Virus record (IMG/VR): IMGVR_UViG_2778261005_000009
DNA length: 5,452 nt
Direction: 5' to 3' (one strand)
From: a virus
Taxonomy: Duplodnaviria; Heunggongvirae; Uroviricota; Caudoviricetes
Positions 2,065 to 3,943 of the stretch are shown here, piece after piece. Position 1 is the stretch's first letter. Every line of letters starts with the position of its first letter. The translations under genes and the position numbers were made by a program. The notes below the pieces were generated by a model. That model ran no database searches. It was not told the origin of the DNA and was given only the letters and a program-made list of their open reading frames with translations.

Positions 2065-2288
2065 AAATCCTGTATCAGGATTACGGCCCGGTGGGGCAGG
2101 TGGTTATCAGCAGTACTGTAATGGAGTTTCGGAAGCATAACCGTGTGGTGGATGCTGTGCTGTTAACCTGTCCGGGGATATCGGCGAGTCGTGCAGGTGT
2201 GTTTATTATGAAGACGAAATTATATGGCAGTAAGGCGTGGATAAAGAAGGCGTATCGTGTAGCGTTGCAGGAGGTTAACAGTGAGTGA
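2061..2288 (+). CDS. Hypothetical phage protein (75 aa)
   Basis: GTG 2061 overlaps the upstream stop (GTGA) and is preceded by AGGAGG (2047-2052) at 8-nt spacing; stop TGA 2286-2288. No recognisable family. Confidence 0.6.
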   Translation: MKILYQDYGPVGQVVISSTVMEFRKHNRVVDAVLLTCPGISASRAGVFIMKTKLYGSKAWIKKAYRVALQEVNSE

Positions 2289-2592
2289 AATTAAAGAAAT
2301 GCCGGTAGTTCGTGACGGATATGGCTACTGGACACATCCTGAATATGAAAAATTCTGTGATGGTCGGGAATATATTTCAACGGAAGAGTTTAACGCCTGG
2401 ATGGAGGAAAATAATCTTCAATACGTCCTCTGCTTCAGAGATGAAGGATGTGCTGACCTTGATGCGTGTGATGCTGATATTTCTGCATGGGAACCGGAAC
2501 GACCAGAGGGCGATGGCTGGTTTATTGGTTCCATTCATGATACGGAAGATGGCCCGGTTTGTGTCTGGTTGCGAAATAAGGCTGAAGCATAA
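2281..2592 (+). CDS. Hypothetical acidic Cys-containing phage protein (103 aa)
   Basis: GTG 2281 preceded by AGGAGG (2268-2273) at 7-nt spacing and overlapping the upstream stop by 8 nt; alternative ATG 2299. Stop TAA 2590-2592. Acidic, with a CxDxDACDAD stretch. The overlapping frames 2312..2617(+) and 2377..2613(-) are rejected. Confidence 0.65.
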   Translation: MSEIKEMPVVRDGYGYWTHPEYEKFCDGREYISTEEFNAWMEENNLQYVLCFRDEGCADLDACDADISAWEPERPEGDGWFIGSIHDTEDGPVCVWLRNKAEA

Positions 2593-3612: not shown

Positions 3613-3630
3613 TGCTGCGGGTGCTTGAGG
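3613..3630 (+). promoter_or_regulatory. 5' element of hok mRNA complementary to its 3' end (tac/fbi-like long-range pairing, 5' partner)
   Basis: tgctgcgggtgcttgagg (3613-3630) pairs antiparallel with cctcaacgcacccgcg (3993-4008): 6 bp, a one-nucleotide bulge (C3999), then 10 bp including one G-U. Confidence 0.45.
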
Positions 3631-3664
3631 CTATCTGCCTCGGGCATGAACACCAACGGCAGAT

Positions 3665-3739
3665 AGAGAAAAGCCCCAGTTAACATTACGCGTCCTGCAA
3701 GACGCCTAACATTAATCTGAGGCTCAATCTATGAACGGC
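3665..3739 (-). ncRNA. Putative Sok-like antisense RNA (type I antitoxin), about 75 nt
   Basis: Minus-strand sigma70-like promoter (below) would start transcription near + coordinate 3739. The transcript is antisense to the upstream in-frame ATG (3731) and its SD (GAGG 3719-3722). It ends in a terminator-like structure on the minus strand: outer stem ccucag/cugggg (3717-3722 with 3674-3679, one G-U), inner stem gcguc/gacgc (3690-3694 with 3701-3705), then U-tract cuuuucucu (+ 3665-3673). Ends are approximate. Confidence 0.4.
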
Positions 3740-3745
3740 AAATCT

Positions 3746-3774
3746 AGGTTAGCCTCTTACGTGCCGAAAGGCAA
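3746..3774 (-). promoter_or_regulatory. Candidate promoter of the Sok-like antisense RNA
   Basis: On the minus strand: -35 TTGCCT (+ coordinates 3774..3769), 17-nt spacer, -10 TAACCT (3751..3746). The -35 overlaps the hok SD region on the opposite strand. Confidence 0.35.
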
Positions 3775-3787
3775 GGAGAAGCAGGCT

Positions 3788-3943
3788 ATGAAGCAGCAAA
3801 AGGCGATGTTAATCGCCCTGATCGTCATCTGTTTAACCGTCATAGTGACGGCACTGGTAACGAGGAAAGACCTCTGCGAGGTGCGAATCCGAACCGGTCA
3901 GACGGAGGTCGCTGTCTTCGTAGACTACGAATCTGAGAAGTAA
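3788..3943 (+). CDS. hok: Hok/Gef-family type I toxin (51 aa membrane peptide)
   Basis: ATG 3788 preceded by AGGAG (3774-3778) at 9-nt spacing; stop TAA 3941-3943. Product MKQQKAMLIALIVICLTVIVTALVTRKDLCEVRIRTGQTEVAVFVDYESEK aligns along its length with plasmid R1 Hok ([52 protein letters not shown]) and is very close to chromosomal HokD/RelF as recalled. The track ORF 3731..3943 is an in-frame upstream extension (ATG 3731), possibly a mok-like leader reading frame. Confidence 0.9.
   Translation: MKQQKAMLIALIVICLTVIVTALVTRKDLCEVRIRTGQTEVAVFVDYESEK

Follow-up and report, generated by a model that had tools for sequence, protein, structure and literature searches.

A small acidic protein of a defective lambdoid prophage and its relatives in phages and on conjugative plasmids

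The gene and its setting

The virus record IMGVR_UViG_2778261005_000009 (Caudoviricetes) is a stretch of DNA of 5,452 nucleotides, referred to throughout as the window, and among its genes is one for a small, strongly acidic protein that is the subject of this report. The safest statement that can be made about the protein is that it is a genuine member of an accessory family, orf184/PHROG 1372. The window is 99.8% identical to many chromosomes of E. coli O157:H7 and corresponds to the early-right (nin-type) part of a defective lambdoid prophage of that bacterium, in whose genomes RefSeq annotates the same interval as a 'hypothetical protein', WP_001289673.1. From RefSeq and family scans, the gene order on the plus strand begins with the end of the insertion sequence IS1203, which truncates a DnaT-like (YdaU-type) gene, and continues with a lambda-P-like gene, a DUF1627 gene, a helix-turn-helix gene, a 75-aa gene (phrog_1001), and the gene for the acidic protein. 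There follow, after a gap, genes for DUF4014 and DUF551 proteins, a hok/sok locus, and genes for a YgiW/BOF protein, a 90-aa protein, and a DUF968 protein. It is the truncation of the DnaT-like replication gene by IS1203 that marks the prophage as defective.

As read from the sequence and the list of open reading frames (ORFs), the acidic-protein gene begins with a GTG codon at position 2281 and ends with a TAA codon at 2590-2592, giving a product of 103 aa (Table 1). Its first 8 nt overlap the end of the 75-aa gene that precedes it, an arrangement that implies translational coupling of the two genes, and the gap that separates it from the next gene downstream is 127 nt long. A consensus scan for a terminator or promoter 3' of the gene found none. 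The ORF is a genuine gene, translationally coupled to its neighbor, and it is placed far beyond a chance ORF by the number of its relatives (228 clusters at 90% identity, 736 at 50%) and by the residues that are invariant among them. The product has an isoelectric point (pI) of 4.12 and a net charge of about -17, with 25 Asp or Glu residues against 8 Lys or Arg, and it contains 5 Cys and 14 aromatic residues (5 Trp, 5 Tyr, and 4 Phe); the remaining proteins of the gene cluster are basic, with pI values of 8-11. An earlier note on this DNA, made from its letters alone, had described an ORF at this position with a strongly acidic product, several aromatic residues, a strong Shine-Dalgarno sequence, and the last place in a coupled cluster. 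All of this is borne out: the ORF by a RefSeq coding sequence over the identical interval, the acidity by the composition just given, the ribosome-binding site by an AGGAGG at close spacing, and the last place in the cluster by the upstream overlap together with the downstream gap.

Family membership and conserved residues

The protein matches phrog_1372, a family that PHROG annotates as 'unknown function', with an expect value (E) of 4.1e-56 over residues 1-102, and BLASTP aligns it along its whole length with gp45 of phage mEp213, known as orf184 (AFM76385.1), at 43% identity and an E of 3e-29. The curated libraries Pfam, NCBIfam, and PADLOC held no match to it. In particular, there was no Pfam match to the Lar domain (PF14354, a zinc ribbon) and none to Ral. 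The earlier note had found no recognizable family, and this stands for Pfam, NCBIfam, PADLOC, and the PDB, but not for PHROG 1372 and orf184. Profile matches in the PDB were rejected as an artefact, as they involve only the Strep-tag II of recombinant constructs (WSHPQFEK), which residues 17-24 of the protein (WTHPEYEK) resemble. The same residues, at 2329-2352 of the window, form a conserved N-terminal motif, and their likeness to Strep-tag II can easily mislead automated annotation.

Among 5.8 billion proteins, a search found 228 clusters of homologues at 90% identity, all of them labelled 'hypothetical' or 'prophage protein', and a profile search of 1.84 billion representatives at 50% identity returned 736 clusters with an E of 1e-3 or below, 239 of which lie at or below 1e-10. 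By tblastn, the family is found in 60 phage records, with hosts that include Escherichia, Klebsiella, Erwinia, Yersinia, Pectobacterium, Serratia, Providencia, Vibrio, Pseudomonas, Burkholderia, and Ralstonia. Of 5,426 complete E. coli genomes, 900 (17%) carry a DNA homologue, in at most four copies. The family ranges over phages of Gamma- and Betaproteobacteria and conjugative IncF-type plasmids.

Among 71 members that are mutually less than 50% identical, G15 is invariant and ten further positions, all present in the window protein, are conserved in at least 90% (R11, H19, P20, W70, P72, P75, G79, W80, G91, and W96). The protein also carries the family signature R-x3-G-x-W-x-H-P ... W-x-P-x2-P-x-G-x-G-W-F ... 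D-T-E-D-G-P-x-C-x-W. Acidity is likewise common to the family, with a median pI of 4.25 and a median net charge of -14 over 128 domain sequences.

Table 1. Coordinates of the acidic-protein gene, its start signals, and the segments of its product (positions are those of the window)
Feature	Position	Strand	Evidence
Coding sequence, 103 aa (WP_001289673.1)	2281..2592	+	ORF list, RefSeq identical locus, PHROG, BLASTP, AlphaFold2
Shine-Dalgarno sequence AGGAGG	2269..2274	+	Read from sequence; spacer to GTG 6 nt
8-nt overlap GTGAGTGA, GTG start with stop of upstream 75-aa gene (2061-2288)	2281..2288	+	Sequence and ORF list
N-terminal signature R11-D-x-x-G15-x-W17-x-H19-P20 (RDGYGYWTHP), extended segment and tight turn	2311..2340	+	Alignment, burial
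Variable acidic loop, residues 53-69, holding CADLDACDAD (2449-2478)	2437..2487	+	Alignment, model
W70-x-P72-x-x-P75-x-G-x-G79-W80 segment (WEPERPEGDGW), nearly invariant	2488..2520	+	Alignment, burial
C-terminal beta-hairpin FIGSIHDTEDGPVCVWLR; tip D87-T-E-D-G91 at 2539-2553	2521..2574	+	Model strands, conservation, exposure

The earlier note had also taken a Cys/Asp-rich composition as the character of the protein, a description drawn from the CADLDACDAD stretch (residues 57-66) that does not survive comparison with relatives. The loop that holds this stretch varies in length from 7 to 25 residues across the family, the motif itself occurs in 7 of 120 listed homologues, and Cys51, Cys57, and Cys63 are each found in 3-7% of relatives. 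The Cys-rich stretch, placed in this indel-rich loop, is allele-specific, and its cysteines would take no part in the mechanism. A cysteine-dependent metal-binding or redox protein could be imagined from the 5 Cys of this 103-aa protein, three of which fall in a span of 13 residues. Apart from the three rare cysteines, however, Cys26 is conserved among enterobacterial members only, the sole conserved cysteine (C94, in 80-100% of members) is a single buried residue of a beta-strand, and there are no CxxC pairs in the family. The pattern of conservation in the alignment essentially excludes a Cys-based metal site, and we give next to no credence to a cysteine-dependent function.

The homologue orf184 and gop-beta-cII

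The connection to orf184 was made through a peptide motif found in the supplementary tables of an accessory-gene screen (bioRxiv 10.1101/2023.04.06.535777); in the main texts of the literature, no mention was found of the accession of the window protein, the PHROG number, or the motif. In that screen mEp213 gp45 was tested under the designation UDP0184, or 'orf184' (Silas et al. 2023, bioRxiv 10.1101/2023.04.06.535777). The same protein is one of the tblastn matches of the window protein. According to the parts of the preprint drawn on here, orf184 is conditionally lethal in strain ECOR59, with transposon suppressors in beta and gop, and the killing is reproduced in a lab strain by combining orf184 with cloned gop-beta-cII. 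The same parts locate orf184 in the accessory region of ral, and they report a cell-death trigger alone, with no inhibition of restriction-modification (bioRxiv 10.1101/2023.04.06.535777). For this homologue only, then, expression together with the toxin-antitoxin-like gop-beta-cII of satellite P4 has been found to release toxicity and kill the cell and, as far as these parts of the preprint go, the activation of gop-beta-cII abortive infection by one member is the sole known property of the family.

Phage lambda is restricted by gop-beta-cII (2022, PMC9122126). A six-frame profile search of the lambda genome found no homologue, with a best E of 2.2 as against 2.7e-45 for the mEp213 positive control. 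Since lambda is restricted and yet has no homologue, the family cannot be the sole trigger of gop-beta-cII. The lambda result further indicates that gop-beta-cII does not serve as a receptor dedicated to this one family, and it fits a system that senses either a shared perturbation or several triggers. P1 is not among the 40 of the 60 tblastn phage records that were listed, and no profile scan of P1 was made. As for the components of the system, P4 Gop is a protein of 133 aa with no Pfam domain, Beta matches PF14350, and cII is annotated as 'sce7726 family'.

Predicted structure and surface

An AlphaFold2 model built on a diverse alignment has a predicted local distance difference test score (pLDDT) of 91.9 and a predicted template-modelling score (pTM) of 0.82, with helices at residues 20-26 and 34-43 and strands at 46-52, 81-88, and 91-99. 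Confidence is lowest in the blocks covering residues 51-70 around the acidic loop, where block means are 77-81. The model thus predicts, with high confidence, a compact alpha/beta fold of two helices and a three-stranded sheet packed around a Trp/Pro-rich core. Foldseek found no solved relative of this fold in the PDB (best E 0.95, TM-score <0.3), so that structure prediction, which the earlier note had proposed as a check, has delivered a confident model and no PDB relative. In BFVD, Foldseek returned uncharacterised phage proteins only, with E down to 4.7e-10, TM-scores up to 0.86, and 23-36% identity, and most of these are recognizable family members from phages that also have tblastn family matches (PEp14, Parlo).

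Burial was estimated as half-sphere exposure from the alpha- and beta-carbon (CA/CB) coordinates of the published AlphaFold model of orf184, a coordinate set whose soundness is shown by CA-CA distances that are all 3.66-3.95 A. In this model, R11, W17, H19, W70, P72, P75, W80, F81, and W96 are buried, as is C94, and the Trp/Pro core is made up of W70, P72, and P75, which rank with the most deeply buried. The buried invariant residues would define the fold rather than a site. Conserved residues that are exposed comprise D12, P20, E36, position 47, G77, G79, and above all D87, E89, and D90, which are acidic in 89% of members and have half-sphere neighbor counts of 13, 2, and 7, respectively. Because the invariant residues are buried and the exposed conserved residues are those of the acidic hairpin tip, no catalytic signature is apparent. 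The centroid of the acidic residues in the same model lies 1.6 A from the center of the domain, which measures about 41 x 33 x 23 A, and the charge appears to be spread evenly, with nothing that resembles the charge array of DNA.

This distribution of charge bears on the idea that the protein is a DNA-mimic anti-restriction protein in the manner of Ocr and ArdA, whose negative surface would block restriction enzymes or other DNA-binding defence proteins. The idea gains from the composition of the protein (pI 4.1 and a charge of -17 in 103 aa) and the family-wide acidity, from the fusion of the Lar restriction-alleviation domain to family members in 3 clusters and of a Tad2-like domain to another relative, and from the presence of the family on conjugative plasmids. 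It also gains, on the evidence of the preprint's parts cited above, from the position of the homologue in the accessory region where other phages have ral and from its triggering of an abortive-infection system. However, the lack of likeness to solved structures in the Foldseek search extends to known mimics, and in the predicted models (CA/CB only) the acidic residues are isotropic on a globular domain and form neither a stripe nor a rod. Furthermore, much of the charge resides in a loop that is conserved in neither length nor sequence, the plasmid copies lie outside the leading region, and, in the parts of the preprint used, Ocr and ArdA triggered other cell-death systems while no restriction-modification inhibition was reported for orf184 (bioRxiv 10.1101/2023.04.06.535777). 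DNA mimicry is therefore regarded as improbable.

Genomic contexts in phages and plasmids

The mEp213 homologue belongs to the pL operon, flanked by an N-like gene and cIII at the place taken by ral and ea10 in lambda, and the homologue in the P1-like phage D6 adjoins ppp. The family domain forms the N-terminal part of longer ORFs in PY54 and in Klebsiella phage LASTA, and it is internal to a 310-aa protein in a Burkholderia phage. A conserved upstream partner was considered and rejected, as the 75-aa gene of the window shows no relation to the genes that precede the homologue in D6, mEp213, PY54, a Vibrio phage, and a Burkholderia phage, nor are those genes related from one phage to the next.

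It is conceivable that the protein assists the replication or recombination of phage or plasmid DNA as an auxiliary factor, with death through gop-beta-cII an incidental outcome. The window gene is located just 3' of the DnaT-like and lambda-P-like genes, homologues in other phages are found near RdgC, Erf, or exonuclease genes, and some relatives are fused to RdgC and exonucleases. Set against this are the absence of conserved synteny, position and neighbors being different in every lineage examined; a patchy spread (17% of E. coli genomes, and absent from lambda) that is typical of accessory genes; and a strongly negative charge in a protein with no apparent nucleic-acid-binding features. 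An auxiliary role of this kind is considered quite improbable.

Homologues are present in 2,029 of 72,556 plasmid records (about 2.8%), 1,759 of them conjugative, and the carriers are mostly from Klebsiella and mostly of IncF type. On IncFII(K) plasmids the homologue is found at the distal end of the tra operon, in the order finO ... DUF2726 gene, homologue, phospholipase-D-family gene, repA, and its start overlaps the stop of the DUF2726 gene, which encodes a PD-(D/E)XK-like protein, by 4 nt. A related plasmid has another gene of unknown function between the DUF2726 gene and the homologue, and on other IncF plasmids the homologue is situated between traW and traU. The variable position of the gene (pL, nin, beside ppp) together with its occurrence in so many plasmid records argues for an accessory, mobile-element character.

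The IncFII(K) arrangement raises the prospect that the protein is an immunity protein or antitoxin against an adjacent nuclease, with the orphan copies of phages serving as anti-toxins. A small acidic protein beside a nuclease is a classic inhibitor arrangement, and here the 4-nt overlap with the DUF2726 gene is followed by the phospholipase-D-family gene. The pairing with DUF2726 is, however, limited to one related plasmid backbone, it is interrupted on the plasmid with the intervening gene, it does not extend to the copies between traW and traU, and no nuclease gene adjoins the homologue in phages or in the window. This makes an immunity function extremely unlikely. In Klebsiella, blocks of the DUF2726 gene, the homologue, and the phospholipase-D-family gene were located at 8336-9291 of locus L009 and 5340-6295 of locus L010, and the IncFII(K) block might represent a nuclease and inhibitor module carried by very common resistance plasmids.

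Domain fusions

Among the 150 best representatives, 71 have more than one domain, and the family domain may stand first or last in them. The partners that Pfam recognizes are Lar_restr_allev (3 clusters), an Rv2179c-like exoribonuclease (2 clusters), Tad2-like, DHH/DHHA1, and RdgC domains (1 cluster each), and a few others. For instance, P0178 has Lar at residues 9-88 and then the family domain, P0216 has the family domain and then a full-length Tad2-like domain at 132-209, and P0240 has the exoribonuclease at 6-171 and then the family domain; P0178 and P0216 are each encoded by one ORF on a short contig dense with small overlapping genes.

The commonest partner, present in 19 of the 71 flanking segments that are 50 aa or longer, is a domain of the type 'EGWTxEHDD...AEIERLDR'. 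Neither Pfam nor the PDB yielded a match to it, and its many PHROG matches are all of unknown function. This partner is about 90 aa long and has the motif ERxRQ..EGWTxEHDDxH..GELAxAAxxY...WPW..WKP..R.LVKAGALIxAEIERLDR, as seen for example in P0186 (1-95), at the C-terminus of P0256, and in P0249. A second partner, MazG-like by eye and found in 5 clusters, again has no Pfam or PDB match and matches PHROGs of unknown function. Both were dropped as functional leads, all of their matches being of unknown function. A different architecture is seen in P0167 (305 aa), where two family domains stand in tandem (residues ~12-122 and 166-276), so that the family domain can evidently duplicate within one polypeptide.

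The family domain could also be a nucleotide- or oligonucleotide-binding module, for example a sponge for immune signalling nucleotides or a domain that recruits substrates for nucleotide-degrading partners. Fusion partners that speak for this are the Tad2-like domain, with its signal-sponge fold, the Rv2179c-like 3'-5' exoribonuclease, and the DHH/DHHA1 phosphoesterase, to which the five clusters that are MazG-like by eye, though with no Pfam match, may be added. The family also has an invariant Arg, an invariant His, and several invariant Trp residues, and its size is akin to that of known sponges. In the predicted model, however, these Arg, His, and Trp residues would belong to the core and not line a pocket, the extreme acidity disfavors anionic ligands, and Foldseek found no PDB match to Tad1, Tad2, or Acb2. 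Each fusion architecture is moreover rare, and fused modules in polyvalent phage proteins often act independently of one another. Nucleotide binding is thus judged very unlikely.

A candidate role for the family

The reading that we favor, tentatively and with somewhat less than even confidence, is that the protein is a non-enzymatic, host-directed binding factor that is detected by gop-beta-cII and that uses its acidic hairpin tip and loop as the contact. As a member of the counter-defence or host-takeover class, it would act stoichiometrically on a host or defence protein, and contact would most plausibly be made via the exposed acidic tip D87-T-E-D-G91 and the acidic loop that neighbors it. 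In turn, gop-beta-cII would sense the protein directly or else respond to what it does to the cell. That the protein may be an inhibitor or act in counter-defence is plausible. A more specific proposal, and a rather doubtful one, is that the family is a new counter-defence module common to phages and plasmids, in which an orphan-fold acidic protein inhibits a nuclease or defence sensor of the host or, with lower probability, binds a nucleotide signal, with gop-beta-cII acting as the guard. Such a guard arrangement would explain why lambda is restricted without the gene, why Lar, Tad2-like, and nucleotide-degrading domains repeatedly occur as fusion partners, and why about 2,000 plasmids, mostly conjugative and of IncF type, carry it.

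A number of observations weigh against a host-directed binding factor. In the parts of the preprint drawn on here, orf184 has a trigger phenotype only. The window protein, at 43% identity to orf184 and with a shorter and different loop, may not share the trigger property. This copy of the gene, furthermore, sits in a defective prophage whose replication gene is broken by IS1203. The IncF copies lie within the tra operon or at its distal end and outside the leading region, the early-entering segment in which plasmid anti-defence genes typically cluster. Finally, the RdgC and exonuclease partners would fit a role in DNA or RNA metabolism equally well, and the burial analysis uses only the CA and CB positions of a homologue's predicted model.

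The family had already been flagged phenotypically through orf184; what is new here, to our knowledge, is how broad the family is and how common it is on IncF conjugative plasmids, together with its repertoire of fusions and the map of its buried and exposed conserved residues. It is a large mobile family, with 736 clusters and a presence in 17% of complete E. coli genomes and about 2.8% of plasmid records, and its carriers include the IncFII(K) backbones found widely in Klebsiella pneumoniae. The window gene itself is an ordinary member in a defective O157:H7 prophage. The question of function is made more testable by a domain boundary, a list of buried and exposed residues with the D-T-E-D-G tip as a candidate contact, and a catalogue of fusions. 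If the protein is a true inhibitor of host defence, it would represent a new anti-defence fold common to phages and plasmids, and if it is only a trigger, it would still be a useful probe for gop-beta-cII.

Other features of the window

The 5' end of the window lies inside an IS3-family element (IS1203/IS629) at positions 1-76, with the start codon of the transposase at 21-23 on the minus strand. The DnaT-like (YdaU-type) replication gene that the insertion has cut (115-546) is annotated as a pseudogene in RefSeq. The ORF at 115-546 overlaps another at 338-1000 in a different frame, and both match phrog_15931, a profile of 482 positions, of which the first ORF matches 205-347 and the second 279-482; in RefSeq the lambda-P-like gene begins only at 539. 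This double match may reflect replication proteins that are fused or frameshifted in some phages, or a mixed profile. Downstream (3') of the P-like gene, the DUF1627 protein (1034-1750) weakly matches exclusion proteins of the Ren-like kind (phrog_142, E 2e-4), and its gene occupies the place that ren takes after P in lambda.

On the other side of the acidic-protein gene, a G+C-rich hairpin, GCCGCCC-GAAA-GGGCGGU, is located at about 2697-2714, between an SD-like CAGGAGG and the ATG of the DUF4014 gene (2720). It has no T-run after it, and the folding of the intergenic region is slightly better than that of shuffled controls (z -1.8); the hairpin could modulate translation or stabilise the 3' end of the upstream transcript. 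Further downstream is a complete toxin-antitoxin locus of the hok/sok type (3619-3943), with an Rfam match to sok at 3619-3793 (105.6 bits), a Hok/Gef-family ORF that ends at 3943, and a longer mok-like frame that starts at 3731.

Comparison with known systems

The closest known system is orf184, which like the window protein matches PHROG 1372, has all the residues that are invariant in the family, and has the same predicted fold. Both are encoded by small acidic early accessory genes of lambdoid phages. The two differ in location, the orf184 gene lying in pL between the N-like gene and cIII and the window gene in the nin region after the replication genes, and in the loop, which has 15 residues and three extra Cys in the window protein and 21 residues in orf184.

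Ral of lambda is a positional analogue, in that the mEp213 homologue occupies the N-cIII interval. In the parts of the preprint drawn on, Ral, unlike orf184, caused no cell death in any strain tested (bioRxiv 10.1101/2023.04.06.535777). Lar of the Rac prophage has its counterpart in the N-terminal Lar domain of 3 family clusters, where it is a separate domain. Tad2 (DUF2829), the sponge that counters Thoeris defence, is likewise a phage accessory protein of ~100 aa and is joined to the family in one direct fusion, P0216. There is no Pfam or Foldseek match between Tad2 and the window protein, and the P0216 fusion is a matter of co-occurrence in one polypeptide and not of shared mechanism.

Ocr (T7 gp0.3) and ArdA resemble the window protein in being small, very acidic (pI about 4), and expressed early, and in coming from phages or conjugative plasmids. 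Both also trigger cell-death systems in the same screen, but, in the parts of the preprint used here, the systems are EcoR22I and Ronin and not gop-beta-cII (bioRxiv 10.1101/2023.04.06.535777). Neither has any sequence or structural likeness to the window protein, and the elongated charge array of Ocr and ArdA contrasts with the globular domain and even charge that are predicted for it.

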